Source: Nitriliruptorales bacterium (GTDB taxonomy: Bacteria > Actinomycetota > Nitriliruptoria > Nitriliruptorales > JAHWKO01). Taken from it: 64,000 nt of DNA. A model generated the notes under the pieces. The model ran no database searches. It was not told the origin of the DNA and saw nothing but the letters and a program-made list of their open reading frames with translations. A program made the position numbers and the translations under genes. Positions 11,511-36,766 of this stretch are shown here, one piece after another; positions within the stretch are counted from its first letter, which is position 1; each line of letters starts with the position of its first letter. The stretch is taken from the NCBI GenBank assembly GCA_046263195.1, contig JBHELG010000033.1:4364-68363 (forward strand), written 5' to 3'.

Positions 11511-11571
11511 CGTGGATAAGTCGCCTGCCGGCTACCCGAAGGTCCTAAGCCCTCCCACGCAGAAGGTGGCG

Positions 11572-11958: not shown

Positions 11959-12000
11959 CAGGCACGTGGAGCAAACCGCGCACACTGCGCGCCCCACCCC

Positions 12001-12029
12001 TTGGCAACCGAACCTGCCCCTCCTAGGGT
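12001..12029 (+). promoter_or_regulatory. candidate SigA-type promoter of the B12 operon
   Basis: TTGGCA (12001..12006), 17-nt spacer, TAGGGT (12024..12029), directly upstream of the riboswitch. Confidence 0.35.
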
Positions 12030-12230
12030 TCGCGCGTCACGGCGACGCCACCAGGAACGCGGTCGGATTCCGCGGCGGTCCCGCCACTGTGACCGGGGAG
12101 TGAGCCTCCGGGGCGTACCTAGACGTCCGACGCAATCAAGCGGCCACCGGTGGGGTCCGGGAAGGCCGGAGGCGGAAGCTTTGATCCGGGAGCCAGGAGA
12201 CTGGGGCGTCGTCACGGGCCAGCGGGCCGG
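12030..12230 (+). promoter_or_regulatory. cobalamin (AdoCbl) riboswitch
   Basis: The core 'CCAGGAACGCGGTCGGATTCCGCGGCGGTCCCGCCACTGT' (12051..12090) matches the conserved GGGAA...GGTG.GAATCC...CCCGCCACTGT region. The B12-box-like 'AGCCAGGAGACTGG' is at 12191..12204. It sits directly upstream of cbtB. Boundaries are approximate. Confidence 0.85.
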
Positions 12231-12252
12231 GGAGCCCGAGAAAGGCGCGCGC

Positions 12253-12426
12253 ATGCATGTGATCCTGCGGCTGCCAGGTCACCTGCAAGTCTCTCTGTTC
12301 GTTGTCGGGGCGCTGCTCGTGGCCTACGCCGTGCTGTTCGACCAGGGGCGTCTCACGGCGGGCCAAGGGCTGTTTCACGAGGTGTTCCACGACGCCCGCC
12401 ATCTGCTCGGGATTCCCTGCCACTAG
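12253..12426 (+). CDS. cbtB: cobalt transporter subunit CbtB
   Basis: Last 57 codons of ORF 12001..12426 from the ATG at 12253. One TM segment and the family-typical C-terminus 'HEVFHDARHLLGIPCH'. Confidence 0.85.
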   Translation: MHVILRLPGHLQVSLFVVGALLVAYAVLFDQGRLTAGQGLFHEVFHDARHLLGIPCH

Positions 12427-12441
12427 CACGCGGATAGACGG

Positions 12442-13194
12442 GTGACCCACCAGACGCTCGCGTCCTGCTTGCGGCGGGGACTTCTTGCCGGCCTGCTCGG
12501 GGGGCTCCTCGCCGGGTTCTTCGCCCTCGTGATCGGGGAGAAGCCACTCGAGCAGGCGATCCGCTTGGAAGCAGTCGCAGCGTCGAGCGGAGTGGCCAAC
12601 ACACAAGCGCCCGCGGACCCCGAAGGGGACGGCACCGGGGTGGTCGTTTCCCGTCGCACTCAACGCCTCGGCCTGCTCGCCGCCACCGGTGTCGTCGGCG
12701 TCGCACTCGGTGGCCTGTTCGGCGCCGTGTTCGCCATGGTGGGCGGAGGAGTAACCACGGACGGTCCATGGCTGGCGAGCGTGAAGCTCGGAGTGGCGGC
12801 TTGGCTAGCGGTCGCGGTCCTGCCCTCCCTGAAGTATCCGGCCAACCCTCCCGGTGTGGGCGACCCCGCCACGGTGGGTTCGCGCAGCGTCTGGTATCTC
12901 ACCGCGATCCTCCTGTCTGTCGTCACGGCCCTGGCCGTCTGGGGGTTGAACGGTCGGCTGAAGCACGTCGGGGTCTCCGTTGCGCAGCGGCACCTGCTCG
13001 CCGGCGCCGCTGCGGTGGCGGGAGTCGTCCTCGTCGCGGCGCTGCCCGCCAATTCGGACCCGATCAGGATTCCTGCGGACCTGCTCTGGAACTTCCGCCT
13101 CAACGCGTTCGCTACGACGGCCACCTTGTGGTTCACGCTCGTGGTCGTTTTCGGCCTGCTCGGCGTCCGTGGGGCTCACCGGGGGGCCAGGTGA
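12442..13194 (+). CDS. cbtA: cobalt transporter subunit CbtA
   Basis: ORF track 250 aa, GTG start, multi-TM. 'GLLAGLLGGLLAGFFALVIGEKPLEQAIRLE' is typical of the CbtA N-terminus. Paired with cbtB behind the riboswitch. Confidence 0.8.
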   Translation: MTHQTLASCLRRGLLAGLLGGLLAGFFALVIGEKPLEQAIRLEAVAASSGVANTQAPADPEGDGTGVVVSRRTQRLGLLAATGVVGVALGGLFGAVFAMVGGGVTTDGPWLASVKLGVAAWLAVAVLPSLKYPANPPGVGDPATVGSRSVWYLTAILLSVVTALAVWGLNGRLKHVGVSVAQRHLLAGAAAVAGVVLVAALPANSDPIRIPADLLWNFRLNAFATTATLWFTLVVVFGLLGVRGAHRGAR

Positions 13195-13796
13195 CGAAGA
13201 CGACCCGCGTCCTGCTCGTGCGTCACGCACCCACCTCCTCGACTCGTCGCGCAAGCTTTCCCTCCGACGAGGAACTCGACGCGCGGGGTCGCGTCGAGGC
13301 CGCCACCCTTCGCGGCACGTTGCCGCGGGTGACTGCGCTCACAAGTCCGGCGGAAAGAGCGGTTGAGACGGCGACCCTTGCCGGCTTCCGGGAGGCGACC
13401 ATAGAGCCGGCGCTCGCCGAGTGCGGCTTCGGGCGCTGGTCCGGACGCACGTTCGGCGAAGTTCAGCGGGAGGACCCCGAGCGGTTCGCTGCCTGGCTCG
13501 CCGACCCACAGGCGTGCCCGCCGGGCGGTGAATCGATCGGCAGGCTCGTCGGACGCGTGGCCGGCCTGCTCGAACGTGTGCGTGCCGGTCCTCCCGTCCT
13601 CTGCTTCACGCACGGGGGGCCGATCAAGGCCGCGGTCGTATACGCGCTCGAGGCACCGCTGACGGCGGTATGGCGAGTCGACGTGGCGCCCTGTTCCGTG
13701 ACCGAGCTTCACGCACGCCCGGAAGGGGGCTGGACGCTGACCCGTTTGAACGTGCCGGCCGCCGCCTTCGTCACGGCGGGGAGGATATCGGCGTGA
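13191..13796 (+). CDS. cobC: histidine-phosphatase family protein, probable alpha-ribazole-5'-phosphate phosphatase
   Basis: 3' part of ORF 12768..13796. The GTG at 13191 overlaps the cbtA TGA (GTGA). 'VLLVRHAPT' is an RHG-type motif and 'CFTHGGPIKA' follows later. Function inferred from operon context. Confidence 0.7.
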   Translation: MTKTTRVLLVRHAPTSSTRRASFPSDEELDARGRVEAATLRGTLPRVTALTSPAERAVETATLAGFREATIEPALAECGFGRWSGRTFGEVQREDPERFAAWLADPQACPPGGESIGRLVGRVAGLLERVRAGPPVLCFTHGGPIKAAVVYALEAPLTAVWRVDVAPCSVTELHARPEGGWTLTRLNVPAAAFVTAGRISA

Positions 13797-14878
13797 TGCC
13801 TGCATCGGCGCCTCCTCGTGGCGGCGCGTCAACCGCGTCGATGCCCCCTCGGGACGCAAGTGGCGGCGTCCTGGCGGCTGGCATCGCAGCCGGCTACCTG
13901 GGTGACCTCCTACTGGGAGACCCTGCCCGTGGCCATCCGGTGGCCGGCTTCGGACGGCTCGCTCTGGCGTTCGAACGCCTCGCCTATCGCCCCACGCGGC
14001 TGGCCGGTGCCGTTTATGCCGGTGTGCTCGTCTCGGCGGTCACGGTTGCGGTCGCCGCCATCGATCGGGCGGTGGCCGCAAGAGCCCCGGTACGCGTGGG
14101 TTTCACTGCGGTCGTGACCTGGGCCGCGCTGGGCGGCCGTAGCCTGCGTCGCGAAGGCCGTGCGGTCGCGGCGCTGATCGAAGCCGGCGACCTGGACGCG
14201 GCACGTCGTCGTCTACCGTCGCTCTGCAGCCGCGACCCTGGGTCGCTCGACGAGAAGGGACTGGTGCGCGCGGCGATCGAGTCGCTCGCCGAGAACACCT
14301 CCGATGCAATCGTCGCCCCCCTCGTGTGGGGGACTCTGGCGGGGCCAGCCGGGACCGCCGCTCACCGTGCCGCGAACACGCTCGACGCGATGGTCGGCTA
14401 CCGAACTCCTCGCTACCTGCGCTTCGGCACCGCAGCCGCTCGTCTGGACGACGTCCTCAACCTCCTGCCGGCTCGGATCACGAGCGTGCTCGCGGCCGTG
14501 CTCGCCCCCGCGGTAGGCGGCTCTCCGGCTCGCACCTTCGCCACCATCCGGCGCGACGGCGGCCACCATCCCAGTCCCAACGCTGGGCGTACCGAGGCGG
14601 CCTTCGCTGGCGCCCTCGAGGTGCGGCTCGGCGACGACGAGGTCTCCTACCACGGTCGCGTCCTTCGCCGCCCCCCGGTCGGGGACGGACCGCCCCCCTC
14701 CCCGGTCGACGTGGAGCGGGCTGCACGTCTCTCCGCCCTGGTCGGTCTGATCGCTATCGCGCTGACGGTTGGCGCTTGTCTCAGGAGTGCGAGGAACAGC
14801 CCGGGCAGCGCCGCAGGCGCGGGCGGGTGGGCCTGGCAGGGCAGCGCCGCCGGCGCGGGCGGGTGGGCGCGCAGATGA
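13796..14878 (+). CDS. cbiB: adenosylcobinamide-phosphate synthase CbiB/CobD
   Basis: Inside ORF 13670..14878. The ATG at 13796 shares one base with the upstream TGA. 'ENTSDAIVAPLVWG' and 'HHPSPNAGRTEAAFAGAL' are present. The C-terminus carries a duplicated 'GSAAGAGGWA' tail. Confidence 0.9.
   Translation: MPASAPPRGGASTASMPPRDASGGVLAAGIAAGYLGDLLLGDPARGHPVAGFGRLALAFERLAYRPTRLAGAVYAGVLVSAVTVAVAAIDRAVAARAPVRVGFTAVVTWAALGGRSLRREGRAVAALIEAGDLDAARRRLPSLCSRDPGSLDEKGLVRAAIESLAENTSDAIVAPLVWGTLAGPAGTAAHRAANTLDAMVGYRTPRYLRFGTAAARLDDVLNLLPARITSVLAAVLAPAVGGSPARTFATIRRDGGHHPSPNAGRTEAAFAGALEVRLGDDEVSYHGRVLRRPPVGDGPPPSPVDVERAARLSALVGLIAIALTVGACLRSARNSPGSAAGAGGWAWQGSAAGAGGWARR
14803..14874 (+). repeat. 36-bp tandem duplication (2 copies) at the cbiB 3' end, directly abutting the cobQ ATG
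   Basis: 14803..14838 and 14839..14874. The first 30 nt of each copy differ at a single position (gggcagcgccgc[a/c]ggcgcgggcgggtgggc). In frame (12 codons). Confidence 0.9.
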
Positions 14879-16407
14879 AAGGGGCGATCCTCCTGGGAGG
14901 AACGGGGTCGGACGTCGGCAAGAGCGTGCTCGTCGCTGGCCTGTGTCGCTGGCTGTCCCGCTGCGGCGTCAAGGTGGCGCCGTTCAAGGCTCAGAACATG
15001 GCGTTGAACTCGGTCGTGACTCCCGACGGCGGTGAGATCGGACGGGCGCAGGCGGCTCAGGCTGCAGCGGCAGGCGTGGCCCCCGAGGTCGCCATGAACC
15101 CCGTGCTCATCAAGCCGACCGGCGAGCGCCACAGCCAGGTTGTCGTCATGGGTCGGGCCGCCTTCAACGCCAGCGCACGCTCGTACCGCGACCACGGCGC
15201 AGAGCTCCTCCCGGTCGTCATCGAAGCGTTCTCGGACCTGTCCTCGCGATTCGACGTCGTCGTCTGCGAGGGTGCCGGGAGCATCGCCGAGATGAACCTC
15301 CGCCGCGGCGACCTCGCCAACCTCGGACTGGCCAGGGCCTTGGACCTGCCCGTCGTCGTCGTCGGAGACATCGACCGGGGCGGGGTCTTCGCCGCCTTCT
15401 ACGGCAGCCTCGCCCTGCTCGAGGCCGCCGACCAGGCGCACGTAGCCGGGTTCATCGTCAACCGCTTTCGCGGCGACCGGGGCGTGCTCGCGCCCGGACT
15501 GCGGCAGCTCGCAGCGCTCACCGGCCGCCCGGTGCTCGGCGTGCTGCCCCACCAGGACGGGTTGTGGCTCGACGCCGAGGACAGCCTGTCCTTGGACGTG
15601 GGTGGCTGGGACCGCGGCGGAGGCGGAACCATCGACGCACTGGATGTTGTCGTGGTGCGCCTGCCACGAATCAGCAACTTCACCGACGTTGACGCCCTGA
15701 CCGTCGAACCAGGCGTGTCCGTGCGCTTCTCGACGAGTCCGGCCGCGATCGCGCGCGCCGATCTCGCGATCCTGCCCGGTTCGAAGTCGACGGTAGACGA
15801 CCTGTCCTGGCTGCGGCGTATGGGAATCGCAGGCGCCCTACTTGAGCGGGCTGCGGCCTGCAGACCGATTCTCGCAGTCTGTGGCGGCTACCAGATGCTC
15901 GGACGTCGTATCGTCGACGAGTTCGAATCCGGCGCCGGTGAGGTCGACGGGATCGGGCTCCTGCCGGTCGAGACCCGTTTCGAGCCCACCAAGCACCTCG
16001 ACCGTCCCATGGGTGTGTGCCCGTTCCTGGGCTGGGTGGACGCAAGCGGCTATGAAATTCGTCATGGACGAACTCGGGTGGCGGGTGACACCCCCTTCCT
16101 CGTTGCCGTTGACGGCTCTCCTGAGGGTTGCGTCGTCGGCAGTGTGATCGGCACGTCGTGGCACGGGTTGCTCGAGGGGGACGTCCTGCGCCGTGCCCTG
16201 CTCAGGTGGGTGGCGGATACGACGGGACGTGACTGGCGGCCCGGCATCCGACCATTCGAGGCGGTGCGCGAGGAACGGCTCGATCGCCTCGGTGACCTCG
16301 TCGCAGCGCACCTAGACACGGAGGCGTTGACGGCGCTCATCGATAGGGGGCCCGCGAGCGGTCTGCCGCTCGTCCCGCCCGCCGGCGTGCCGGAGGTGGG
16401 TAGATGA
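14875..16407 (+). CDS. cobQ: cobyric acid synthase CobQ/CbiP
   Basis: 3' 510 codons of ORF 14326..16407. The ATG at 14875 overlaps the cbiB TGA (ATGA). 'GTGSDVGKSVLVAGLCR', 'FKAQNMALNS', and a GATase-3 region 'AVCGGYQMLG'. Confidence 0.95.
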   Translation: MKGAILLGGTGSDVGKSVLVAGLCRWLSRCGVKVAPFKAQNMALNSVVTPDGGEIGRAQAAQAAAAGVAPEVAMNPVLIKPTGERHSQVVVMGRAAFNASARSYRDHGAELLPVVIEAFSDLSSRFDVVVCEGAGSIAEMNLRRGDLANLGLARALDLPVVVVGDIDRGGVFAAFYGSLALLEAADQAHVAGFIVNRFRGDRGVLAPGLRQLAALTGRPVLGVLPHQDGLWLDAEDSLSLDVGGWDRGGGGTIDALDVVVVRLPRISNFTDVDALTVEPGVSVRFSTSPAAIARADLAILPGSKSTVDDLSWLRRMGIAGALLERAAACRPILAVCGGYQMLGRRIVDEFESGAGEVDGIGLLPVETRFEPTKHLDRPMGVCPFLGWVDASGYEIRHGRTRVAGDTPFLVAVDGSPEGCVVGSVIGTSWHGLLEGDVLRRALLRWVADTTGRDWRPGIRPFEAVREERLDRLGDLVAAHLDTEALTALIDRGPASGLPLVPPAGVPEVGR

Positions 16408-19400
16408 GCAGCGCCAAGGTCGAGCGTCCGATGATCCTGTTCCTCACCACGGCCGACACCGAAGTGCTTGCGGCTGCGGAAGCCGGGGAACGCCTACCAG
16501 CCGGCTTCCCGCACGTACGCCCAGTCAACCCTGTCGACGCCCCGGATGACTCCGGGGAGCTCAGTCGCTGGCTCGACGAGGTTCTGAAGGGAGTGGTGGT
16601 CGTACTCGTCCGCCTTCTCGGCGGACGTCGTGCCTGGCCGGCAGGTTTCGACCTCGTCCGTGAGCTCTGCCAGGCACGAAACCTGCCGCTCCTGGCCTTC
16701 GGGGGAGAGGACGTGGTGGATGCTGAGCTCACCGCGGCCTCGACCGTCCCCTCCGGCGTCATCAGGCACGGTTTCGAGTACCTGCGTCACGGCGGTGTAG
16801 AAAACACCGTCGAACTGCTGCGCTTCGTGGCAGACACCGTGCTGTTCGGGGGGTTCGGGTTCGGGCCACCCACGGAGATACCGCGCTGCGGCTGGTACCG
16901 ACCCGAGCTCAAGGACCGCTTGGACCGGGAAAAGCCGACCATCGGCGTGATCTTCTACCGGGCTCACTTCGTGGCCGGCAACATGGGCTTCATCGATGCC
17001 CTGCTCGAAGCCATCGAGGCCTCGGGGGCCAACCCTCTCGCCGTGTACGCCTATTCGCTCCGGCCGGAGGCCGACGGGCGTGTCCCGGCACTAGAGCTCC
17101 TCGCTGACGGGTGGGAGGGCGGTCGCAAGACCGCCGATGGGACATTTCAGGTCGACGCCCTCGTGCTCACGGTGCTGGCGATGGGCGGGTCGAATGCAGC
17201 TGATGCGGAGAGCTGGGAGGTACCGGCGCTGCAGGCGCTCGACGTCCCGGTGGTGCAAGCCCTGTGTGCCACGAGCAGCCGCGAACGCTGGGCCGCCTCC
17301 GACGCGGGCCTGTCGCCACTCGACGTTGCGATGCAGGTCGCGATGCCGGAGTTCGATGGACGCATCGTCACGGTTCCCTGCTCGTTCAAGGAGGAGGTCA
17401 CCACCGCTCACACCTCGGTGTACCGCTACGTCCCCGACCCGGAACGTGCCGCACGGGTGGCCGGCACCGTCGTCCGCCACGCCCTGCTGCGCAGGACTGC
17501 GAACGCGGACAAGAAAGTCGCCATCCTCCTGTCGAACTATCCGACCCGCCACAGCCGGGTCGGCAACGCGGTCGGGCTCGACACCCCCGCCTCGGCCATC
17601 GTCCTGCTCGAGTCTCTACGCGAGGCGGGGTTTCGGGTGGAGGGAGTCCCTCCCGATGGGGACTCGCTCGTTCACGCGCTCATCGCGTCGGGAGGCCACG
17701 ACCAAGAATTCCTCACCGAAGCTCAGCTCGCGGGGGCCAGCGGCCGTCTCGAGGCCGAACGCTACGCAGCCTGGTTCCAGCGCCTGCCCGTCAGTCTCCG
17801 GGAGGCCGTGGAGCGCCACTGGGGGCCACCACCCGGCGAGCTCTACCTCAGCCCAGACCGACGGGCCTTCGTCGTGTCGGGTCTCGTGTTCGGCCACGTG
17901 TTCGTCGGCATCCAGCCGCCCCGGGGCTTCGGCGAGAACCCGATCGCCATCTACCACGACCCCCATCTGCCGCCCACCCACCACTATCTGGCTGCCTACT
18001 GCTGGCTGAGGGAGGAGTTCGGCGCCCACGCCGTCGTACACCTCGGAAAGCATGGGACGCTCGAGTGGCTACCAGGTAAGGGACTTGGCCTCTCGGCGGG
18101 GTGCGCCCCGGACGCTGCCCTCGGAGACCTTCCCCTCTTCTACCCCTTCGTCGTCAACGATCCAGGCGAGGGGACCCAGGCGAAGCGCCGCGCCCACGCC
18201 ACCATCGTCGACCACCTCGTAGCGCCGATGATGCGCGCCGAGACCTATGACGACCTCGCGCGCCTGGAACAGCTGCTCGACGAGCACGCCCAGGTCGAGA
18301 GCCTCGACCCCTCGAAGCTACCGGCCATACGAGCCCAGATCTGGGAGGTGCTCACCCGGGCCGAGCTCCACCGCGACCTCAGCCTGAGCGAGCCGCCCGA
18401 GGACTTCGGTGAACTCGTCCTCCAGGTGGACGGCTACCTGTGCGAGATCAAAGACCTCCAGGTCCGCGATGGCCTTCACGTGCTCGGGGTTCCCCCGGAG
18501 GGTGAGCAGCTGCGCGGTCTCGCCAAAGCGATCCTCCGCCTGCCGCAGCGTGCCGGCCTCCCTGGGCTGCGATCAGCGGTCGGGCAGGTGTTCGGGCTCG
18601 ATGAGCGTTGGCTGCTGGAGGAGCCTGGGCAGCCGTCAGCCGCACCGCCGGCCCTGCTTGCCATCGCACCCGGGGCCGCGCGGACCCGCGCTGACCTGCT
18701 CGATCGCCTCGAGGAGCTCGTGGACCGGCTACTCGAGGCCCTCGACGCGAAGGGCTGGGACGCCAGCGCCGCCGAGGCCGTCGTCCAGGACGTCCTGCTT
18801 GACCCGCCCCGCCCGGCCCCCGCCGAGCATGGGCCGGGTGGGGGCAGGAGCAGTCCCGTCATAGAGGTGTTGCGGCTCGCCTGCGCTGAGGTGGTCCCAC
18901 GCCTGCGGGCATCCAGCCGTGAGGTCGAGGCGCTCCTGGCCGGCCTCGATGGGCGTTTCGTGCCGCCAGGACCATCCGGGTCACCGACCCGGGGACGCCT
19001 CGACGTCCTACCGACCGGCAAGAACTTCTACTCCGTCGACCCCAAGGGGCTCCCCTCGCGGCTCGCATGGGAGGTCGGCCAGCGCATGGCCTGCGACCTT
19101 CTGGCCCGCTACCAGAGGGACGAGGGTGCCCTGCCCGAATCGATCGGCATCGTCGTGTGGGGGACGGCGAACATGCGCACGAACGGGGACGACATCGCGG
19201 AGGTTCTCGCCCTGCTCGGGGTACGTCCCCTTTGGAGTGACGAGTCACGACGGGTGATCGGACTCGAGGTCACGCCCCTCGAAGAGCTCGGCCGTCCCCG
19301 GGTCGACGTGACGGTCCGCATCAGCGGCTTCTTCCGGGACGCCTTCCCCCACCTCGTCGAGCTCGTCGACCGGGCCGTGGAGATGGTCGCCTCGCTCGAC

Positions 19401-20225: not shown

Positions 20226-20232
20226 GGGTCAC

Positions 20233-22173: not shown

Positions 22174-22192
22174 AGGCGTGCGAGGAGGGGGC

Positions 22193-29671: not shown

Positions 29672-31350
29672 CGCGCATCGTGTTGGCCGCCGCCACCGCC
29701 GCGGGGCGGCGCCTCGCTGCCGACCTCGCCAGCCACCTCGGCGGGCACCTCCACCCGGGGACGATCAGGGACGCCATATCCGCGGCATGGCAGCGGGCCG
29801 ACCAACTCGTCCTGGTCATGGCCACCGGCGCGGCCGTTCGCCTCCTCGCCGACCACCTCCGCGACAAGGACACCGACCCGGGAGTCGTCTGCGTTGACGA
29901 CGCGGGCCGCTTCGCGGTCGCCCTGGTCGGTGGGCACGAGCGCGGCGCGAATGCGTTGGCGCAACGGGTCGCGGTCCACCTCGGCGCCACCCCTGTGATC
30001 ACGACCGCCTCCGAGTCGCATGACCTGCCAGCACTGAGCGCTCTCGGCTCCCACTTCGGCCTCCGTGTCGACCCCGACAGTGACCTCCCCGCCGTTGGAG
30101 GGGCACTCCTCGGCGGTGGGCCCGTGCACCTCCTGAGAGAGCGGCCGTGGCCGCTCGGTCCCCTCCCCGATGTCATCGAGGTCGACACCCCGGTCCCCCC
30201 TCTGCTCTGGGTGACCGACAGGAGCGTCGTGTCGCCCCGCCCCGCAGTCGTCTACCGGCCTCCGACCCTCGTCGTCGGTGTCGGCGCAAGCAGCGGCGTC
30301 ACGGCTGAGGAGGTCATCGCCCTCATCGACTCGGCCTTGGCCGACGCGGGCCTGTCACCGGGTTCGGTCGCGTGCCTCTCCACGCTCGACCTGAAGGCCG
30401 ACGAGGAAGGGATCGTCGAGGCCGCCGCCACTCGAGGTTGGCCCCTGCGCACCCTGCCGGCCGAGCGGCTCGCGGCCATCCCGGTTCCAAACCCATCGGC
30501 CGTCGTGGCGGCCGCCGTGGGCACGCCGAGTGTGGCCGAGGCCGCCGCACTCCATCTCGGGGGAGAGTTGCTCATCGAGAAGCGGCGTGGCCCCATGGCG
30601 ACCGTCGCGATCGCTCGCCGCCCCACCCGGGGCCATCTCGCCCTCGTCTCGCTCGGACCCGGCGCCGACGACCTCCTCCCGCCCCGTGCCCGCGTCGCCC
30701 TGGCCCGTGCCGAGATCGTCGTCGGCTACCACGGCTACCTCGAGCTCGCCCGTCCCCACCTCGCCCGCGGGGCCCGGCTCGAAGCCTTTCCCCTCGGCGA
30801 TGAGACGGCACGTGCACAGCGCTGCCTCGAGCTCGCCCGGACCGGACACGCAGTCGCTCTCGTGTCGAGTGGCGACGTGGGCGTCTACGCGATGGCATCC
30901 CCGACTCTCGAACGGGCCGAGCCCGACGTCGACGTGGAGATTGTGCCGGGCGTCACCGCGGCACAGGCCGCCGCGGCCCTACTCGGGGCGCCCCTCGGCC
31001 ACGATCACTGCGCCATCTCACTCTCGGACCTGCTCACTCCCTGGGACGTCATCCGTCACCGCGTGACCGCGGCGGCCATCGCCGACTTTGTCGTCGCCAT
31101 CTACAACCCACGCAGCCCCGCACGCCACTGGCAGCTCGACGAAGCCCGACGCATCCTGCTCGACCACCGCGAGCCAGACACTCCCACCGGAGTCGTCCAC
31201 GACGCCTTCCGCCCCCGCCAGCGTGTCGGGCTCACCACGCTGGGCAAGCTCGACGTCAGCGACGTCGATATGACCACCGTCGTGCTCGTCGGCAGCTCGC
31301 GGACTCGTGTTGTGGGCGGCCGCATGGTGACTCCGCGGGGATACACGTAG
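29668..31350 (+). CDS. cbiG/cobJ: CbiG (cobalt-precorrin-5A hydrolase) fused to precorrin-3B/cobalt-factor-III C17-methyltransferase (CobJ/CbiH)
   Basis: 3' 560 codons of ORF 29086..31350. GTGA overlap. The N-terminal ~320 aa are CbiG-like ('VLVMATGAAVRLLA...VCVDDAGRFAVALVGGHERGAN', 'VVGVGASSGV...LDLKADEEG'). The C-terminal part is 'LALVSLGPGADDLLPPRA...VSSGDVGVYAMA'. Confidence 0.85.
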   Translation: MTRIVLAAATAAGRRLAADLASHLGGHLHPGTIRDAISAAWQRADQLVLVMATGAAVRLLADHLRDKDTDPGVVCVDDAGRFAVALVGGHERGANALAQRVAVHLGATPVITTASESHDLPALSALGSHFGLRVDPDSDLPAVGGALLGGGPVHLLRERPWPLGPLPDVIEVDTPVPPLLWVTDRSVVSPRPAVVYRPPTLVVGVGASSGVTAEEVIALIDSALADAGLSPGSVACLSTLDLKADEEGIVEAAATRGWPLRTLPAERLAAIPVPNPSAVVAAAVGTPSVAEAAALHLGGELLIEKRRGPMATVAIARRPTRGHLALVSLGPGADDLLPPRARVALARAEIVVGYHGYLELARPHLARGARLEAFPLGDETARAQRCLELARTGHAVALVSSGDVGVYAMASPTLERAEPDVDVEIVPGVTAAQAAAALLGAPLGHDHCAISLSDLLTPWDVIRHRVTAAAIADFVVAIYNPRSPARHWQLDEARRILLDHREPDTPTGVVHDAFRPRQRVGLTTLGKLDVSDVDMTTVVLVGSSRTRVVGGRMVTPRGYT

Positions 31351-31611
31351 ATGACGCTGACCAGGAGCGACCCGCCAGGAGCTGCCGTCGGTCACCTCGG
31401 ACGCAGGAGGACCTGTGAAACCCCCCTCTACACCGTCACCGTCGACTGCACCGCATGCGGTGCCTGCCTGCGCACCTGCCCGGAACGCTCCATCCGCCCC
31501 GCCGTCCCAGGCTCCCCTGCCCCGCTCGTCGTGCTCGACACCTGCAGCGGATGTGGCGAGTGCGCCGAGATCTGCCCGGTCGAGGCCTGCGTGGAGGTGA
31601 CGCGGTCATGA
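31351..31611 (+). CDS. 2x[4Fe-4S]-type ferredoxin embedded in the corrin operon
   Basis: ORF track 86 aa. The ATG directly abuts the cobJ TAG. Two cluster motifs: 'CTACGACLRTCP' and 'CSGCGECAEICP'. Confidence 0.75.
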   Translation: MTLTRSDPPGAAVGHLGRRRTCETPLYTVTVDCTACGACLRTCPERSIRPAVPGSPAPLVVLDTCSGCGECAEICPVEACVEVTRS

Positions 31612-32183
31612 GACATCCCATCGAGGCGGAGAGCTACGCGATCCTGCGTGGCCTGCTCGACCTGTCGCACCTGCCCCCACTTGGGCGCGCGGTCGTCGAA
31701 CGCGTGGTGCACGCGAGCGCCGACCTCGACTACGTCAGCGACCTCGTCCTCGACGAGGAGGCACTCAGCCGGGGACAGGCCGCGCTACGAGCCGGCGCTC
31801 CCATCGTCGCCGACGTCGACATGGTCGCCGTGGGGATCACGGGCCGCAGGGTGCGCAACTTCGTCTCCGACGTTCGCGCCAGCCGCCTGGCGGCGGAGGT
31901 CGGAGGGACCCGCAGTTCGGCCGCCGTCAAGGTCGCCCGGGACGAGGTCGGTCCGGGGGCGGTGTGGGTCGTGGGCTGCGCCCCCACCGCCCTCGTCACC
32001 CTGCTCGAGATCGACGCCGCTCCCGCCTTCGTCGTCGGCCTGCCGGTCGGGTTCGTCGGCGCGGTCGAAGCCAAGGCTGCGCTGCGCGCCTCCGGTCTTC
32101 CCGCCGTGTCCAACCTCGGACCGAAGGGTGGGTCCGCGGTCGCGGCCGCCGCCGTCAACGCCCTGCTCGAGGATGTCTCATGA
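31608..32183 (+). CDS. cobH: precorrin-8X / cobalt-precorrin-8 methylmutase CobH/CbiC
   Basis: 3' 191 codons of ORF 31455..32183. ATGA overlap. 'VVHASADLDY' and 'VVGCAPTAL...GFVGAVEAK' are present. Confidence 0.9.
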   Translation: MRHPIEAESYAILRGLLDLSHLPPLGRAVVERVVHASADLDYVSDLVLDEEALSRGQAALRAGAPIVADVDMVAVGITGRRVRNFVSDVRASRLAAEVGGTRSSAAVKVARDEVGPGAVWVVGCAPTALVTLLEIDAAPAFVVGLPVGFVGAVEAKAALRASGLPAVSNLGPKGGSAVAAAAVNALLEDVS

Positions 32184-33133
32184 GCTCCCGCGCACACCGT
32201 CGGCCGCCAACCAACCTGCCGCTCGGCGTCCAACGATCGCCAGCCCCGTACAGCTCCACAGCCCCAGGCGATGCCCTCCTCGTCGCCGGGCACGGATCAC
32301 GGGACGACGACGGGGTGGTCGAGTGCGCCGCGCTCGTACAGCAACTGCGGCTGCTGCGCCCCGACCTGCCCGTCGCTCTCGGCTTCATCGAGTTCGCCCC
32401 TCCACCGCTCCGTGAGGCCGTCGCCGGGCTCGTCGCAGGGGGGGCCACCAGCATCACCGTCATCCCACTCGTGCTGCTCGGTGCCGGCCATGCGAAGACC
32501 GACGTTCCCGCCGCCATGCAGCGGGCACGTGACGCCCACCCCGACGTGACCTTCCACTACGGTGCGCCGCTGGGCGTCCACCCCGATCTCCTCACCGTCG
32601 TCGACCAGCGGCTCGACGCCGCCCTTCCCCCAGCCGCTCGTGTCGACACCGCGGTTCTGCTCGTCGGACGGGGGTCGTCGGACCCGGACGCGAATGCCGA
32701 CCTTGCCAAGGTCGCCCGGCTGCTGTGGGAGGGTCGTCCGCACGAAACGGTCGAGTTCGCCTTCGTAGGCATCACCGCTCCGTTGGTCCGAGCCGGACTC
32801 GATCGGTGCCGACGGCTCGGTGCCCGTCGCATCGCCGTGGTGCCCTACTTCCTGTTCACGGGAGTTCTGCTGCACCGCATCAAGTCCGAAGCAGACGCAT
32901 TCGCCGCCGCCAATCCCGGTCTCGACGTCGTCGTCACCGCCCACCTCGGCGCCGATCCCCGCATCGCGCGGCTGGTGCTCGACCGCTTCGACGATGCCCG
33001 GGACGGCCGCGCCCAGCCGAACTGCGACGTGTGCCAGTACCGCATCCCGCTGCCCGGCTTCGAACAGCGGGTCGGAGCCCCACAGACGCTCCACTTCCAC
33101 CCTCACGACCCTTGCCCAGAGGGGCTCAGGTGA
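32180..33133 (+). CDS. cbiX: sirohydrochlorin cobaltochelatase, long-form CbiX (two CbiX domains)
   Basis: 3' 317 codons of ORF 31964..33133. ATGA overlap. 'LLVAGHGSRDDDG' and a second domain 'LLVGRGSSDPDAN'. C-terminal Cys pair 'NCDVCQYR'. A SirB-type ferrochelatase role cannot be excluded from sequence alone. Confidence 0.75.
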   Translation: MSSRAHRRPPTNLPLGVQRSPAPYSSTAPGDALLVAGHGSRDDDGVVECAALVQQLRLLRPDLPVALGFIEFAPPPLREAVAGLVAGGATSITVIPLVLLGAGHAKTDVPAAMQRARDAHPDVTFHYGAPLGVHPDLLTVVDQRLDAALPPAARVDTAVLLVGRGSSDPDANADLAKVARLLWEGRPHETVEFAFVGITAPLVRAGLDRCRRLGARRIAVVPYFLFTGVLLHRIKSEADAFAAANPGLDVVVTAHLGADPRIARLVLDRFDDARDGRAQPNCDVCQYRIPLPGFEQRVGAPQTLHFHPHDPCPEGLR

Positions 33134-34761
33134 CCCGCATCCTCGTCCTCGGCGGTACGAAGTCGGGCAAGACCACGCTTGCCGAGCAACTTGCCGCCGC
33201 ACCGGGTCGTCCCGTCGCCGTCGTCGCGACCGCCCAGGTGACCGACCCGGAGATGGCGGAGCGGATCAGCCGCCATCGCGAACGTCGCCCCTCCAGCTGG
33301 ACGACCATCGAAGACGTCGACCTGAGGGATGCCCTCGACATGGTCGGCCCCCACGACAGCGTGATCGTCGACGCACTCGACACGTGGCTGGCCCGCCGCA
33401 TGGGGGCGGCTGGGCTGTGGACCGACCAGGCGACCGCCCCGCTGGGTGCGAGCGGCACGAGGGTTGTCGAGGCCATCCTCGCCGAGCTCGCCGCATTCTG
33501 GGCAGCCGCCGGGAGCCGGAGCGGACTCAGCGTGGTCGTCGCCGGGCAGCCCGGCTGGGCTCCCGTGCCAGCCGACGCTTCTACCCGTCGCTTCCTCGAT
33601 GTGCACGGGACCGCGATCCAGGGGCTGTCCGCCAGCGCGGACCGCGTGATGATGGCGGTGGCCGGTCGCGCCCTCGAGCTGACTGCCGCCCCCACCCGGT
33701 TCGAGTCACAAGAGGCGCAAAACGTGCCGGAACTGCGTGAGCACGGCGACACCCAAGCCCCGCCCGGCACCCTCGACCTCGCGGTCAACGTCCAGTCCGA
33801 CCTGCCCCGCTGGCTGCGGCAACGTCTGGCCGAGACGCTCGAGCGGGTGACGAGCTATCCCGACACCACCCGTGCCCGCGCGGCCGCCGCAACCCGACAC
33901 GACCGGCCCCCGGCGGAGTGCCTGCCGCTCGACGGCGCAGCCGAGGCTTTCTGGTTGCTCGCTTCCACGCTGCGGCCAGGCCGGGCGGTATGTGTCCACC
34001 CTTCCTTCACCGAACCCGAAGCGGCCCTGCGCGCGCATGGCCACCGGGTGACGCGCGTCTTCCGCGACCGTGAGCGAAATTGGGGACTCGACCCCGACGC
34101 CGTACCCCCCGAGGCAGATCTCGTCGTCCTCGGTCGTCCCGACAACCCCACCGGAGCACTCGACCCCTTGGACGACATCGCGGCGCTCACCCGAGAGGGT
34201 CGCACCCTCGTCGTCGACGAGTCGTTCGCCGAATTCCTGCCCGACGAGCGCCTCACCCTCGCCGCTCGTCGCGACCTTCCCGGCCTCGTCGTCATACGCA
34301 GCCTCACGAAGCTGTGGGGTCTTGCGGGCCTTCGAGTCGGCTATCTGCTCGCCGCGGCCGACCTCGTCGCCCGACTCGACTCGAAGCGGCAGCCGTGGTC
34401 GGTCAACGCGCTCGCCGCTGAGGCCCTCGTCGCCTGCGTCGCGGCTGAGGACGAGCGCCAGGCACGCGCCCGCCGGGTCGCCACGGAACGTGAGCGGCTC
34501 GAGGCGGTTCTGCGCACCGTCCCCGGCCTCGTCGTGTGGCCCTCCGCGGCCAACTTCCTCCTGCTTGCGGCCCCCGGCGTCAGCGACCTGCGCCAACGCC
34601 TACTCCGACGGGGGGTGGCGGTACGGCGCGGCGAGACATTTCCCGGGCTCGGCCCCGACCACGTTCGTGTCGCCGTTCGCGAGCCTGCCGACAGTGATCA
34701 ACTCGTCGCCGCCGTGCGCGAATCGCTGGGTGTCGAGAGCCCGCGCCTGTGCGCGACGTGA
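33130..34761 (+). CDS. cobU: fusion of adenosylcobinamide kinase/guanylyltransferase (CobU/CobP) with an L-threonine-phosphate decarboxylase-type aminotransferase (CobD/CobC)
   Basis: 3' 543 codons of ORF 32725..34761. GTGA overlap. N-terminal P-loop 'ILVLGGTKSGKTTLAE'. C-terminal class-I/II aminotransferase fold with the PLP lysine context 'VVIRSLTKLWGLAGLRVGY'. No stop codon between the halves. Confidence 0.8.
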   Translation: MTRILVLGGTKSGKTTLAEQLAAAPGRPVAVVATAQVTDPEMAERISRHRERRPSSWTTIEDVDLRDALDMVGPHDSVIVDALDTWLARRMGAAGLWTDQATAPLGASGTRVVEAILAELAAFWAAAGSRSGLSVVVAGQPGWAPVPADASTRRFLDVHGTAIQGLSASADRVMMAVAGRALELTAAPTRFESQEAQNVPELREHGDTQAPPGTLDLAVNVQSDLPRWLRQRLAETLERVTSYPDTTRARAAAATRHDRPPAECLPLDGAAEAFWLLASTLRPGRAVCVHPSFTEPEAALRAHGHRVTRVFRDRERNWGLDPDAVPPEADLVVLGRPDNPTGALDPLDDIAALTREGRTLVVDESFAEFLPDERLTLAARRDLPGLVVIRSLTKLWGLAGLRVGYLLAAADLVARLDSKRQPWSVNALAAEALVACVAAEDERQARARRVATERERLEAVLRTVPGLVVWPSAANFLLLAAPGVSDLRQRLLRRGVAVRRGETFPGLGPDHVRVAVREPADSDQLVAAVRESLGVESPRLCAT

Positions 34762-35819
34762 CCCTCTCCGACCGCGTCCGAGAGCTCGCCGCCGACGTCG
34801 TCGCCGTCGACCGCGAGGCCGCTGCGGCCGCAGAGGCCCGCCAGTTGCAACTCGCGAAGCCTCCGGGCAGCCTCGGCGCCCTCGAGCCTCTCGGCGCGCA
34901 GCTGTGCGCGATCGCCGGAGACTGTCCACCCCCGATGCCGACACAGGCGGCGCTCCTGCTCGCCGCTGCCGATCACGGCGTCCACGCATCGGGGGTCACT
35001 CCCTGGCCGCAGGACGTCACCCGACGCCTGGTCGAGGCGCTTTGCCGCGGAGGAGGGACGGCGAACGTCCTCGCCGACCTGGTGGGCTGCCGCGTGTGCG
35101 TCCTGGATGTCGGCGTCGCTGGGGAGCTGGGAGGTCATCCGCGCCTACGACGCGCCCGAGTTCGGCTCGGTACCGCTGATCTTCGTACCACGGAGGCGAT
35201 GAGGGAGGAGGAGGCGGCCCGCGGCGTGCTGGCGGGTGCCGGAGTCGCCGAGGAGCTCGTCGGCGCCGGCGCCGATCTTCTCGTCACAGGCGAGGTGGGC
35301 ATGGCGAACACTACCGCAGGCGCCTGTCTCGTGGCCGCCCTCACAGGCGCCGATCCTGTCAGCGTGACGGGGCGCGGCTCCGGCGTGGACGACCACGGGC
35401 TCGCCCGTAAACGCGCCGTTGTCGCCGAGGCACTGGCCCGTCACGGGAACGACACTCGTCCACTGCGGGTCCTCGCGTCCCTTGGCGGGCTCGAGCATGC
35501 CGCCCTCGTCGGTCTCATCCTCACCGCTGCCGCCGAGGGCCTTCCTGTCCTTCTCGACGGGCTGGCAGCGCTGGCCGCGGCGCTGGTCGCCACATCGCTC
35601 GCCCCGGACGTGGTCGGCTACCTCATCGCCGGCCACCGCCCGGCCGAGCCGGGAGCGAGCGTCGCGCTGGACCACCTCGGCCTCGAGCCCCTGCTCGACC
35701 TCGGGCTGCGGCTCGGAGAGGGCACCGGAGCGCTGCTCGCCATCCCGCTCGTCCAAGCTGCGGCCCGCGTCCTGCGCGACGTCGCCACACTCGCAGACGT
35801 CGGAATCGTGCCACCGTGA
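34749..35819 (+). CDS. cobT: nicotinate-nucleotide--dimethylbenzimidazole phosphoribosyltransferase
   Basis: ORF track 356 aa. An alternative GTG at 34758 would give a GTGA overlap. 'LAKPPGSLGALEPL', 'GEVGMANTTAGA' and 'LGEGTGALLA' are present. Confidence 0.85.
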   Translation: MRDVTLSDRVRELAADVVAVDREAAAAAEARQLQLAKPPGSLGALEPLGAQLCAIAGDCPPPMPTQAALLLAAADHGVHASGVTPWPQDVTRRLVEALCRGGGTANVLADLVGCRVCVLDVGVAGELGGHPRLRRARVRLGTADLRTTEAMREEEAARGVLAGAGVAEELVGAGADLLVTGEVGMANTTAGACLVAALTGADPVSVTGRGSGVDDHGLARKRAVVAEALARHGNDTRPLRVLASLGGLEHAALVGLILTAAAEGLPVLLDGLAALAAALVATSLAPDVVGYLIAGHRPAEPGASVALDHLGLEPLLDLGLRLGEGTGALLAIPLVQAAARVLRDVATLADVGIVPP

Positions 35820-36625
35820 GAGCCGCGCTCGGCTTTCTCACCCTGCTACCCGTCGGGGAGCCCGAGCCACCCGGACCCGGCAACCTGGCGGTCTTCCCCC
35901 TCGTCGGAGGGTTGCTCGGCCTCGTGTGGGTAGCAGCCGGCATGGGAGGGGAGGCGCTGGGGGGCCCGCCCGTGGGGGCGGGAATGGTGCTCGTCGTCGA
36001 CCTTCTCGCGACCGGGGCGCTGCACCTCGATGGTCTCGCGGACGTGGCCGACGGTGCCGCCTCGCGTCTTCCTCCCCACGAAGCCCAGACTGTCATGCGC
36101 GACCCCCGGATCGGCGCGGTGGGGGCTGCCACCCTCTGCACCGCGCTGCTCGTCCGCTTCGCCCTCATCGCCGCCGCGCTCCCCACCCCTGCCATCCTCA
36201 TCGCGGCCCCCGCAGCGGGGCGAGCGGCGATGGTGTGGACACTCGGTCGGCTGCCGCACACCTCGGGTGCCAGCGCAGGCGGCGGGCAGGCGGGACAACT
36301 CGGGGCCTCCGGAGGCGGCGGGCAGGCAGGCGGGCCTTCCGGCTCGCTCGGTACCGCGTTGGCCCATCGTGCCGGGCTGGCGGTTCGGGCGGCAGCCGTG
36401 GCTCTCGTCGCCGTCGTGACCGCGGGCGCATTCGCCCTCGCCCGACATTCCCCGGCGACTGTGGTCGCCGCGACGGCGGTCGCTCCGGCACTCATCGTGC
36501 TCGTCAGCGAACCAGCTGCTAGATGGTGGTCCCGCCGCTTCGGGTTCCTCTCCGGCGACGCCGTCGGCGCCGTGGGTGTCGTGACAGAACTCGTCGTCGT
36601 GGCCGGATTGCTCCTCGCCACGTGA
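35816..36625 (+). CDS. cobS: adenosylcobinamide-GDP ribazoletransferase (cobalamin synthase)
   Basis: ORF track 269 aa. GTGA overlap. Polytopic, with 'HLDGLADVADG'. It contains a Gly/Gln-rich insert encoded by an imperfect 36-nt duplication. Confidence 0.85.
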   Translation: MRAALGFLTLLPVGEPEPPGPGNLAVFPLVGGLLGLVWVAAGMGGEALGGPPVGAGMVLVVDLLATGALHLDGLADVADGAASRLPPHEAQTVMRDPRIGAVGAATLCTALLVRFALIAAALPTPAILIAAPAAGRAAMVWTLGRLPHTSGASAGGGQAGQLGASGGGGQAGGPSGSLGTALAHRAGLAVRAAAVALVAVVTAGAFALARHSPATVVAATAVAPALIVLVSEPAARWWSRRFGFLSGDAVGAVGVVTELVVVAGLLLAT

Positions 36626-36766
36626 CGCACGGGGGGCGGCTTCTGGCACGGTCTCAGGAAGGGGGGCGTAGGGTGAGCCGACCGGGCGCGGAGCAGGAGG
36701 GACGCCCCAGTTCATCCTCGGGCCGCCGGGCCGCGGCCGCGCCGGCGGCGATCACCGGAGGAGACG

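Follow-up and report, generated by a model that had tools for sequence, protein, structure and literature searches.

The cob operon of Salmonella (cbiA..cobT) holds 20 B12 genes in one operon and is regulated by a cobalamin riboswitch (PMC5282855). Most of the B12 biosynthesis genes of Mycobacterium tuberculosis are not riboswitch-controlled (PMC3766115). In Streptomyces lividans, the riboswitch of a cluster homologous to the one described here has been validated by RNA-seq (PMC8079986). The 21 genes of the present locus recur, identical in set and order and behind an RF00174 riboswitch, on contig JAHWKW010000003.1 of GCA_019347675.1 (loci L081 and L085), an independent assembly whose CobN and CobU-CobD, the two proteins compared, share about 61-64% identity with those of the present locus.

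Gene content and packing

The locus lies in a window of 64,000 nucleotides, the whole stretch of DNA that was analysed, from a MAG of an uncultured Nitriliruptorales actinobacterium. Downstream of a riboswitch, 21 + strand genes occupy positions 12253-36625:

12253..12426, +, cbtB, small subunit of putative cobalt transporter, 57 aa (Pfam PF09489, E 5.7e-8)
12442..13194, +, cbtA, putative cobalt transporter, 250 aa (Pfam PF09490, E 4e-50)
13191..13796, +, histidine-phosphatase family, CobC-like alpha-ribazole phosphatase, 201 aa (TIGR03162, E 4e-29, below curated cut-off)
13796..14878, +, cbiB/cobD, adenosylcobinamide-phosphate synthase (NF002276, 405.7 bits, above cut-off)
14875..16407, +, cobQ/cbiP, cobyric acid synthase (NF001989, 578 bits)
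16404..20225, +, cobN, late-type cobaltochelatase large subunit, 1273 aa (TIGR02257, 1240 bits)
20233..22173, +, chlID, fused ChlI/ChlD-type chelatase ATPase subunit, 646 aa (TIGR02442, 780.9 bits, above cut-off)
22178..22792, +, cobO/btuR, corrinoid adenosyltransferase (NF004637, 249.6 bits)
22786..24171, +, cobB/cbiA, a,c-diamide synthase (NF002204, 465.6 bits)
24168..24899, +, cbiL/cobI, C20-methyltransferase (TIGR01467, 193.9 bits)
24896..26488, +, cobA-hemD fusion, uroporphyrinogen-III methyltransferase plus uroporphyrinogen-III synthase domain, 530 aa (NF004790, 278.9 bits)
26485..27255, +, cbiF/cobM, C11-methyltransferase (TIGR01465, 321.8 bits)
27252..28412, +, cbiD (NF000849, 453.6 bits)
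28406..29671, +, cbiE-cbiT fusion, cobL-like (TIGR02467 residues 9-204, TIGR02469 residues 242-354, both above cut-off)
29668..31350, +, cbiG-cbiH fusion, 560 aa (CbiG models residues 8-317; TIGR01466, 286.6 bits, residues 324-560)
31351..31611, +, small 2x[4Fe-4S] ferredoxin, 86 aa (Pfam Fer4 families)
31608..32183, +, cbiC/cobH, precorrin-8 methylmutase (NF006136, E 6.6e-44, below curated cut-off)
32180..33133, +, two-domain CbiX chelatase, early-type, 317 aa (Pfam PF01903, two stretches, E 5e-56)
33130..34761, +, cobU fused to Rv2231c-type CobC/CobD PLP enzyme, 543 aa (NF005915, 391.5 bits)
34758..35819, +, cobT, NaMN:DMB phosphoribosyltransferase (NF000996, 366 bits)
35816..36625, +, cobS, cobalamin-5'-phosphate synthase (Pfam PF02654, E 2e-38, full length; NCBIfam score below cut-off)

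Profile searches against NCBIfam and Pfam gave B12-related family matches for all 21 products, with HMM matches beginning at profile positions 1-8 in most genes. All 21 starts claimed in an earlier sequence-only reading are in-frame start codons and the ORFs end at the claimed stops; its run of co-directional B12 genes from cbtB to cobS is thus confirmed in ORFs and families. The cbtB start (ATG 12253) aligns with the starts in relatives, and cobO begins at GTG 22178 or at ATG 22193, the latter with a stronger SD. CobN and CobU-CobD have the lengths of deposited proteins (1273 and 543 aa), CobN being 100% identical to a deposited Nitriliruptorales MAG protein. In the CobA-HemD fusion, NF004790 covers residues 14-259 and HemD models cover 268-503; the L081 homologue matches Pfam TP_methylase and HEM4. 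The CobU-CobD fusion, which is common in Actinomycetota, matches CobU NF004469 at residues 2-185 and NF005915 at 202-529. A CobC-like phosphatase gene occupies the same position in L081, and the gene at the cbiC position in relatives matches Pfam CbiC. In 4 lineages the ferredoxin gene always lies between cbiGH and cbiC, and both of its CxxCxxCxxxCP motifs are retained without change.

The products cover cobalt uptake (cbtBA), a cobalt-early corrin ring set (cobA/hemD, cbiX, cbiL, cbiGH, cbiF, cbiD, cbiET, cbiC and the ferredoxin), a CobN-ChlID chelatase, amidation (cobB, cobQ), adenosylation (cobO), and aminopropanol and nucleotide-loop assembly (cobU-cobD, cbiB, cobT, cobS and the CobC-like phosphatase). 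The operon does not hold the full B12 pathway: CbiJ/CobK and BluB were not found in it, and early heme-branch genes are absent from it except for the HemD domain. The combination in one operon of cobalt-early genes (CbiX, CbiG, CbiD) with the late chelatase CobN-ChlID is a puzzle already noted for haloarchaea.

Sixteen of the 20 junctions overlap, one abuts and the gaps do not exceed 19 nt. The earlier count of 15 omitted a GTGA at 34758 (cobT), which brings the NTGA overlaps to 13; the twelve listed (13191, 14875, 16404, 24168, 24896, 26485, 27252, 29668, 31608, 32180, 33130 and 35816) are all correct, as are the 1-nt overlap at 13796, the 7-nt overlaps at 22786 and 28406, and the abutment at 31350/31351. 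The gaps are 15 nt (cbtA), 7 nt (chlID) and, for cobO, 4 nt from the GTG or 19 nt from the ATG. Among the 13 NTGA starts, five are preceded by an SD that is weak (dG no stronger than -3.5 kcal/mol), namely those of cobA-hemD (+1.2), cobT (+0.9), cbiGH (-3.0), cbiD (-3.5) and cobS (-3.5), which fits with reinitiation. None of the next five same-strand junctions 3' of cobS overlaps even with the longest ORFs (gaps 39-295 nt), so that such packing is peculiar to the B12 genes.

Leader, promoter-like pair and 3' end

The features flanking the genes are:

12001..12006, +, -35-like hexamer TTGGCA, read directly
12024..12029, +, -10-like hexamer TAGGGT (TANNNT), 17 nt after the -35-like TTGGCA
12041..12213, +, cobalamin riboswitch aptamer (RF00174; Rfam core 12052-12203)
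12223..12238, +, expression-platform hairpin CGGGC-CGGGGA-GCCCG, conserved in five lineages
36722..36749, +, perfect 8-bp G+C hairpin GCCGCCGG / CCGGCGGC with a 12-nt loop, in the 141-nt spacer after cobS

A single riboswitch had been proposed at the cluster head, with a cmsearch-type check against RF00174. The search gave a significant match on the + strand at 12052-12203 (58 bits, E 8.7e-12; gathering score 31.5), the sole Rfam match at gathering score in the whole 64-kb window and, within 11500-37700, the sole one even at E<=1. It covers the model locally, from position 45 to 169 of 189, and the P6 region of the aptamer carries a large insertion. In the MFE fold a 9-bp P1 is closed (arms 12041-12049/12205-12213), the B12 box AGCCAGGAGAC lies at 12191-12201, and the aptamer can be aligned with riboswitches from four relatives.

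Only 39 nt separate P1 from the cbtB ATG, with no U-tract or terminator found between them. The platform hairpin is kept as GGGN-CGNGGA-NCCC in five lineages (92% of cells paired), and an SD-like purine-rich AGAAAGG (12239-12245) follows directly 3' of it. One pair covaries across these lineages (GC x3, AU, CG); with five sequences, 22 of 500 shuffles do equally well. MFE folds are no more stable than those of shuffled sequence (leader z +0.5, platform z +1.3), and no sequence clearly pairing with the SD was seen in the leader and platform folds.

The TTGGCA-17-TAGGGT pair is the sole match in 64 kb, on both strands, to a pattern of at least 5/6 of TTGACA, a spacer of 16 to 18 and TANNNT, for which chance predicts 0.38 matches per 24 kb per strand. 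It sits 12 nt before P1, and transcription is predicted to start near 12036, ~5 nt before P1, which would give a leader of ~217 nt. GCA_019347675.1 has the same TAGGGT -10, at equal distance from P1 in L081. Further upstream, a + strand ORF with no assigned function may end at 11958, and read-through into the leader is therefore possible.

The -35/-10 pattern scan found no consensus promoter inside the operon, nor was a consensus terminator found there, terminator-like sites being no commoner than in shuffled sequence. The claim that the leader holds the sole regulatory signals stands to this extent, and for the riboswitch; it does not extend to -10-only promoters. Actinobacterial promoters often require only a TANNNT -10 (PMC8079986), so promoters inside coding sequence are possible.

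At the 3' end, the boundary at cobS matches that in two relatives, in both of which an opposite-strand gene follows. The hairpin at 36722..36749 has no U-tail and was not called by the consensus terminator scan; it is a possible operon end signal.

Proposed control and its alternatives

One transcript and one sensor for all 21 genes are plausible from the sequence. The operon is probably feedback-repressed by B12. Transcription from TTGGCA-17-TAGGGT would yield the leader, which would fold into the riboswitch. Upon corrinoid binding, the short platform, a conserved hairpin abutting the SD without an intrinsic terminator, would block ribosome access to cbtB. The OFF state may be relayed by termination-reinitiation at the NTGA overlaps, where several starts have no separate SD, and probably also by Rho-dependent polarity on untranslated mRNA. 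The full-length transcript would be the main source of expression, with a possible contribution from weak internal promoters.

It is possible, though doubtful, that the locus is divided into several transcription units, in which the riboswitch governs just the genes nearest the promoter (cbtBA and possibly those up to chlID) and the ring-synthesis and nucleotide-loop genes are expressed largely from B12-insensitive internal promoters. In the homologous cluster of S. lividans, the transcript that RNA-seq lists as affected comprises no more than riboswitch-cobD-cobQ-cobN-SLIV_28465, which shows that a long cob cluster of actinobacteria can be split into smaller units, and the -35 is weakly conserved in Streptomyces promoters (PMC8079986). 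Intergenic gaps in Streptomyces are larger than here, with ~900 nt between cbiL and cbiF in most mapped loci; the one such gap examined, that of L016, contains an opposite-strand ZIP transporter ORF and is not followed by a second riboswitch. Locus L083 divides the functions between two riboswitches. Even in GCA_019347675.1 only 12 of the 20 junctions overlap, compared with 16 here, and gaps of 282 nt (a 75-nt tandem repeat), 89 nt and 43 nt occur, the first two of which could hold promoters. In the present operon, however, junctions that have gaps in relatives are GTGA overlaps (24168, 29668), the intergenic space never exceeds 19 nt, no -35/-10 pair of leader quality occurs, and the several genes without an SD would depend on upstream translation.

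A mainly transcriptional riboswitch, with ligand causing premature termination in the leader or early cbtB (Rho-dependent or at a U-tail-less hairpin) rather than direct occlusion of the cbtB RBS, is unlikely. The lack of a clear anti-SD partner is consistent with it; control at the level of transcription, Rho-binding sites included, is described in reviews of B12 riboswitches (PMC5282855, PMC8123684), and Rho-dependent termination is dominant in mycobacteria (PMC11260477). The missing intrinsic terminator, the short distance from P1 to the ATG and the conserved hairpin adjoining the SD argue for translational control, the mode (translational OFF) of both experimentally tested M. tuberculosis B12 switches (PMC11260477). 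The two modes can act together, which makes this a partial rival only.

A chimeric contig joining separate B12 loci is conceivable for a MAG but very improbable, as the gene order is the same in the independent assembly, the complete genome of Rubrobacter marinus (CP045121) has the same core order, codon-position G+C is uniform over the 21 genes and the stop/start overlaps leave no room for a join between genes.

Comparison with known cobalamin operons

Among 80 actinobacterial ChlID-anchored loci, 69 carry one riboswitch-like hit and no more, immediately 5' of the gene that opens the cluster. The core order recurs in Rubrobacter marinus and in MAGs of a Solirubrobacteraceae member and a Nitriliruptor, including cbiD, the cbiGH fusion and the ferredoxin; R. 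marinus has no cobC-like gene or cbiB between cbtA and cobQ, and no chlID was called in the usual place. Clusters of the S. lividans/coelicolor type share the core order cbiB-cobQ-cobN-chlID-cobO-cobB-cbiL...cbiF-cbiET-cbiGH-cbiC-cbiX-cobU/D at 45-65% protein identity, with a single riboswitch-like hit 55-307 nt before cbiB in 65 loci. They differ in that their 5' end carries neither cbtBA nor a cobC-like gene and that cbiD is usually missing; the loci, ~22 kb long and extending to about cobU/D, showed no match to cobT, cobS or cobA-hemD.

The M. tuberculosis ppe2-cobQ-cobU operon likewise has an actinobacterial cobalamin riboswitch, which is translational OFF on a small first ORF and passes its signal to the next gene by termination-reinitiation at an AUGA overlap (Kipkorir et al. 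2024, PMC11260477); it differs in having three genes and an atypical class IIb variant aptamer. The archaeal Haloferax volcanii cluster HVO_B0048-B0062 also has a cobalt-early set (CbiX, CbiG, CbiH, CbiF, CbiL, CbiET, CbiC) with CobN and a fused ChlID, and likewise no recognisable CbiJ (EC 1.3.1.106) (PMC8305020); it lacks CbiD, which is present here.

The Salmonella enterica cob operon (cbiABCDETFGHJKLMNQOP-cobUST) also places ~20 co-directional B12 genes with a cobalamin riboswitch (PMC5282855), and has in common cobalt transport, cobalt-early ring synthesis, amidation and nucleotide-loop assembly. It differs in its CbiK chelatase, CbiMNQO cobalt uptake and CbiJ, lacks CobN-ChlID, the ferredoxin and the CobA-HemD and CobU-CobD fusions, and is further activated by PocR and global regulators (PMC8123684). 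The gene orders are unrelated; the architecture is therefore analogous, not shared synteny, and the present operon is a functional analogue of the 20-gene Salmonella operon. Comparison with related genomes, as had been proposed, found the 21-gene order again in one relative and an arrangement that is not unusual for the phylum. Given that relative and the 69 loci with one riboswitch-like hit at the head, this is the normal actinobacterial design: a single head riboswitch is the usual layout of the phylum, here in its most compact form, and the operon represents a known design, not a new one.

The leader element and the genes behind it

The B12 block opens with a predicted cobalamin riboswitch, which lies in the 5' leader of a B12/cobalt gene downstream of a promoter-like pair of hexamers. 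With 58.0 bits (E 8.7e-12), the Rfam covariance model RF00174 clears its gathering score of 31.5 at 12052-12203 (+), in a local alignment over model positions 45-169 of 189. The closing helix of the aptamer, P1 (9 bp, 12041-12049/12205-12213), closes in the minimum free energy (MFE) fold of 12036-12275, and the B12 box AGCCAGGAGAC at 12191 is kept in five lineages. Homologous riboswitches occupy the same position in relatives. This is the only Rfam match at gathering score in the whole 64-kb window. A second riboswitch inside the block was rejected, as no other Rfam match reached E<=1 in 11500-37700. The single riboswitch that the sequence-only reading had placed at the head of the block is thus upheld.

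That reading had also pointed to a promoter-like pair at the 5' end. The hexamers TTGGCA (12001-12006) and TAGGGT (12024-12029) are both present, separated by 17 nt and lying 12 nt upstream of P1. When a pattern of at least five of six positions of TTGACA, a spacer of 16-18 nt and TANNNT was searched, the pair was the sole match on both strands of the 64 kb (∼0.4 expected per 24 kb per strand). Transcription from it would start ∼5 nt before P1. The order is promoter-like element, aptamer, a 39-nt platform and the cbtB ATG.

Gene identities were assigned with NCBIfam and Pfam profiles, and starts were inferred from HMM coordinates, Shine-Dalgarno (SD) energies and the lengths of deposited proteins.

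Genes of the B12 block in order, all on the + strand
Gene 1: CbtB
Gene 2: CbtA
Gene 3: CobC-like histidine phosphatase
Gene 4: CbiB
Gene 5: CobQ
Gene 6: CobN
Gene 7: fused ChlI/ChlD subunit
Gene 8: CobO
Gene 9: CobB/CbiA
Gene 10: CbiL
Gene 11: CobA-HemD fusion
Gene 12: CbiF
Gene 13: CbiD
Gene 14: CbiE-CbiT fusion
Gene 15: CbiG-CbiH fusion
Gene 16: 31351-31611, +, 2x[4Fe-4S] ferredoxin of 86 aa
Gene 17: CbiC
Gene 18: 32180-33133, +, two-domain CbiX
Gene 19: 33130-34761, +, CobU-CobD (Rv2231c-type) fusion
Gene 20: CobT
Gene 21: CobS

As claimed from the sequence, 21 co-directional genes run from cbtB to cobS, and every start is an in-frame start codon. The start calls are supported because the profile matches of most genes begin at HMM positions 1-8 and because CobN (1273 aa) and CobU-CobD (543 aa) have the lengths of deposited proteins. 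Sixteen of the 20 junctions overlap, consisting of thirteen 4-nt stop/start overlaps (ATGA or GTGA, hereafter NTGA), one of 1 nt and two of 7 nt. The stitching listed in the sequence-only reading therefore stands, but its count of 15 omitted the GTGA overlap at 34758. One junction abuts and the gaps measure 15 nt, 7 nt and 4 or 19 nt, in agreement with the largest gap of 19 nt first reported. With this one correction the original observation is confirmed, while its interpretation is partly supported.

The product of gene 19 joins the CobU kinase/guanylyltransferase to an Rv2231c-type PLP enzyme (CobC/CobD). Such fusions are widespread in Actinomycetota, including Glycomyces, Jiangella and Nitriliruptor, and a metagenomic variant of 887 aa (P0139) carries an extra CobT domain.

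Gene order in relatives and the ends of the operon

The operon structure had been proposed for comparison with related genomes, and an RF00174 riboswitch followed by the same 21 genes in unchanged order is found in the independent metagenome-assembled genome (MAG) GCA_019347675.1 (loci L081 and L085), one of the grounds on which an assembly artefact was rejected. In this relative a TAGGGT -10 lies at the same distance from P1 as in the window. Twelve of its junctions overlap, and its gaps include 282, 89 and 43 nt. The cobB-cbiL junction, a GTGA overlap in the window, is by contrast a tandem-repeat spacer in L081 (18014-18229): the 282-nt gap holds 2.9 copies of a 75-nt repeat, each with the palindrome GGTCTTAGGTCTCCTAAGACC. 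CobN and CobU-CobD of the window are 100% identical to proteins of a Nitriliruptorales MAG on a 109-kb contig; the CobN proteins next in line share only 64-66% identity. The core order, with cbiD, the ferredoxin and the cbiGH fusion, recurs in Rubrobacter marinus, a Solirubrobacteraceae MAG and a Nitriliruptor MAG, where most junctions are 4-nt overlaps.

A wider survey covered 80 loci anchored on ChlID, mostly from Streptomyces, Kitasatospora and Amycolatopsis. Many share the order cbiB-cobQ-cobN-chlID-cobO-cobB-cbiL...cbiF-cbiET-cbiGH-cbiC-cbiX-cobU/D. Exactly one riboswitch-like nhmmer match is present in 69 of the 80 and two in none; it precedes the opening gene of the cluster by 55-307 nt (cbiB in 65 loci, chlID in 3, cbtA in 1), and Rfam confirms the match in both Streptomyces loci checked. 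The gene order of the window is the conserved actinobacterial one, and actinobacterial cobN-type clusters normally have a single riboswitch at the head. Most Streptomyces loci have ∼900 nt between cbiL and cbiF. In one of them (L016) this gap is occupied by a ZIP-family metal transporter ORF that reads the other way (14707-15435, -). The homologous cluster would thereby be split into two or more units, and its part past the gap has no riboswitch in front.

Another relative (L083) has two cobalamin riboswitches, at 7208-7414 and 19438-19660. One precedes cbtB-cbtA-cobQ-cobN... and the other a block of btuF-like, cobC-like, cobT, cobS and FecCD genes; a peripheral loop of the first aptamer holds a short insertion of repeated GCAGAGCCAGAG.

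Downstream of cobS lies a spacer of 141 nt. It includes a perfect, all-G+C inverted repeat of 8 bp with a 12-nt loop (36722-36749), 97 nt past the cobS stop and closely followed by the SD of a gene for an FkbM-type methyltransferase (36767-37504, +). The repeat has no U-tail and may be a terminator lacking one; co-transcription of the methyltransferase gene with the operon is possible. In relatives L085 and L086, cobS is followed by a gene of reverse orientation. A continuation of the operon past cobS was rejected: the next five same-strand junctions are spaced by 39-295 nt (longest ORFs used), and the genes that follow are an FkbM-type methyltransferase, an unknown ORF, Zincin_2, tilS, hpt, ftsH, folE, folP and folK.

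Flanking ORFs were annotated via Pfam because a GC3-based gene finder is too ambiguous at 69% G+C (window, 68.8%). The promoter is directly preceded by a 400-aa ORF (10308-11510, -) that has no Pfam match but resembles a DUF222/HNH (REP13E12-type) endonuclease at its C-terminus, and by a possible small ORF (11545-11958, +) with a faint DUF6176 match (E 0.05). The two long ORFs there overlap by ∼500 nt, and therefore one start is wrong. Further upstream, an ORF matching bacterial archaeo-eukaryotic release factor families (2981-4162, -; baeRF family 10, E 9e-23) adjoins a TrkA_N-domain ORF.

Transcription and the reach of the riboswitch signal

The block is probably a riboswitch-led, translationally coupled operon that is expressed mainly from a full-length mRNA. 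Its genes share one strand, their junctions are short or overlapping, and independent genomes conserve their order. Substantial B12-independent transcription from within the block is rather unlikely. It draws on Streptomyces lividans, in which the affected transcript reported from RNA-seq for the homologous cluster comprises only riboswitch-cobD-cobQ-cobN-SLIV_28465 (PMC8079986), and on the finding that Streptomyces promoters have a conserved TAnnnT -10 only, with a weak -35 (PMC8079986), so that internal promoters of this kind would be invisible to the scans used here. A consensus sigma-70 scan detected no sites inside the operon, and shuffled sequence contains as many terminator-like sites or more. 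These negative scans are weak evidence because both are ill-suited to high-GC actinobacteria. Promoters with a -10 only and Rho-dependent sites escape such scans. Against internal transcription also stand the lack of a second riboswitch in the block and its tight packing, as no spacer exceeds 19 nt and junctions that are open in relatives are closed in the window.

For the riboswitch-led operon, the platform between aptamer and cbtB ATG has neither a U-tract nor an intrinsic terminator. In five lineages a hairpin of the form GGGN-CGNGGA-NCCC directly precedes a purine-rich SD. Covariation is seen at the fourth pair (G-C, A-U, C-G), with 92% of cells paired; in this alignment of five sequences the score was reached by 22 of 500 shuffles, and the conservation is suggestive rather than decisive. 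The MFE folds of leader, platform and post-cobS spacer have energies no better than those of shuffled sequence, and MFE folding of leader plus platform identified no partner that sequesters the SD. An L5-L13 kissing loop is unsupported, as inspection of the alignments found the loop sequences to be non-complementary.

Ligand binding would block translation initiation at cbtB, and the block would be passed downstream via termination-reinitiation at the NTGA overlaps together with Rho polarity. The SD is weak to essentially absent at five of the thirteen NTGA starts, which fits a dependence on upstream translation. An experimental precedent is the B12 switch of Mycobacterium tuberculosis ppe2, which turns translation off and whose signal is passed on by termination-reinitiation at an AUGA overlap (PMC11260477).

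The corrin pathway and comparison with known systems

By its markers, the gene set is cobalt-early: CbiX (E 5e-56), a CbiG domain in the CbiGH fusion and CbiD (453.6 bits) are present. The cobalt-late combination of a CobG or CobZ monooxygenase with CobF was not found: none of the operon proteins or scanned flanking ORFs has CobG or CobF as its best match, and the CobF model hits CbiL alone, weakly and in second rank (43 bits, cut-off 196). The late-type chelatase subunits CobN (1240 bits) and fused ChlID (TIGR02442, 780.9 bits) both score above cut-off, and this CobN-ChlID pair (16404-22173) shares the operon with the early chelatase CbiX (32180-33133), CbiG and CbiD. The gene identities given in the sequence-only reading hold for all 21 genes, but the set is not a complete pathway. 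No CbiJ/CobK (cobalt-precorrin-6A reductase) matched among the 21 operon proteins or the scanned flanking ORFs (1-12000 and 36626-62722); CobG and a BluB/DMB synthase were likewise not found in operon or scanned flanks. CbiJ/CobK is also missing from the homologous blocks themselves in L081/L085, L082, L084 and L086. An Amycolatopsis ORF beside cobM (locus L009), considered as a CobK query, is a GFO/IDH/MocA oxidoreductase and was rejected.

The ferredoxin has two invariant CxxCxxCxxxCP motifs and is always located between the cbiG-cbiH fusion and cbiC in four loci.

Positions of the ferredoxin gene
Window: 31351-31611
L085: 8303-8533
L084: 15291-15497
L086: 8150-8353

It may act as electron donor for CbiH or for the reductase step that is missing. 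Taken together, the CbiJ gap, CobN-ChlID and the ferredoxin look like a lead rather than a finding. One joint reading, which is improbable as a whole, is a non-canonical cobalt-early route in which another member of the block would perform the CbiJ step with the ferredoxin as possible electron donor, CobN-ChlID would serve something other than late cobalt insertion, for instance salvage or re-metallation, and one riboswitch would tune all of this through translational coupling over 20 junctions. Such a route may be common to the window operon and the conserved related operons of Nitriliruptoria, Rubrobacteria and Thermoleophilia. In haloarchaea, CobN-ChlID in a cobalt-early set with a CbiJ gap is an open issue, and a salvage role for CobN-ChlID has been suggested (PMC8305020). 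The window shares both the combination and the gap with the haloarchaeal cluster (PMC8305020), and the puzzle of a late chelatase in a cobalt-early set with no recognizable CbiJ is now extended to bacteria.

With regard to regulation, a comparative survey found an average of 4.5 genes per cobalamin riboswitch (PMC3766115), placing 21 genes at the high end; riboswitches control <10% of B12 biosynthesis genes in Mycobacterium and none in Corynebacteriaceae (PMC3766115). The Lactobacillus reuteri cluster comprises 29 ORFs in two tandem operons (PMC8123684). Of the versions compared, the window operon is the most compact and comes closest to being self-contained, with 21 genes in ∼24.4 kb and no spacer >19 nt, and is hence a convenient natural cassette for heterologous work on the B12 pathway. 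It is also a good test case for the reach of a riboswitch signal through NTGA termination-reinitiation and Rho polarity. The regulatory design itself adds little, as long cob operons headed by a riboswitch have been known since Salmonella, whose cob operon (cbiABCDETFGHJKLMNQOP-cobUST) unites 20 B12 genes in one riboswitch-regulated unit (PMC5282855), compared with 21 in the window. The operon described here is an unusually compact example of this already known design.
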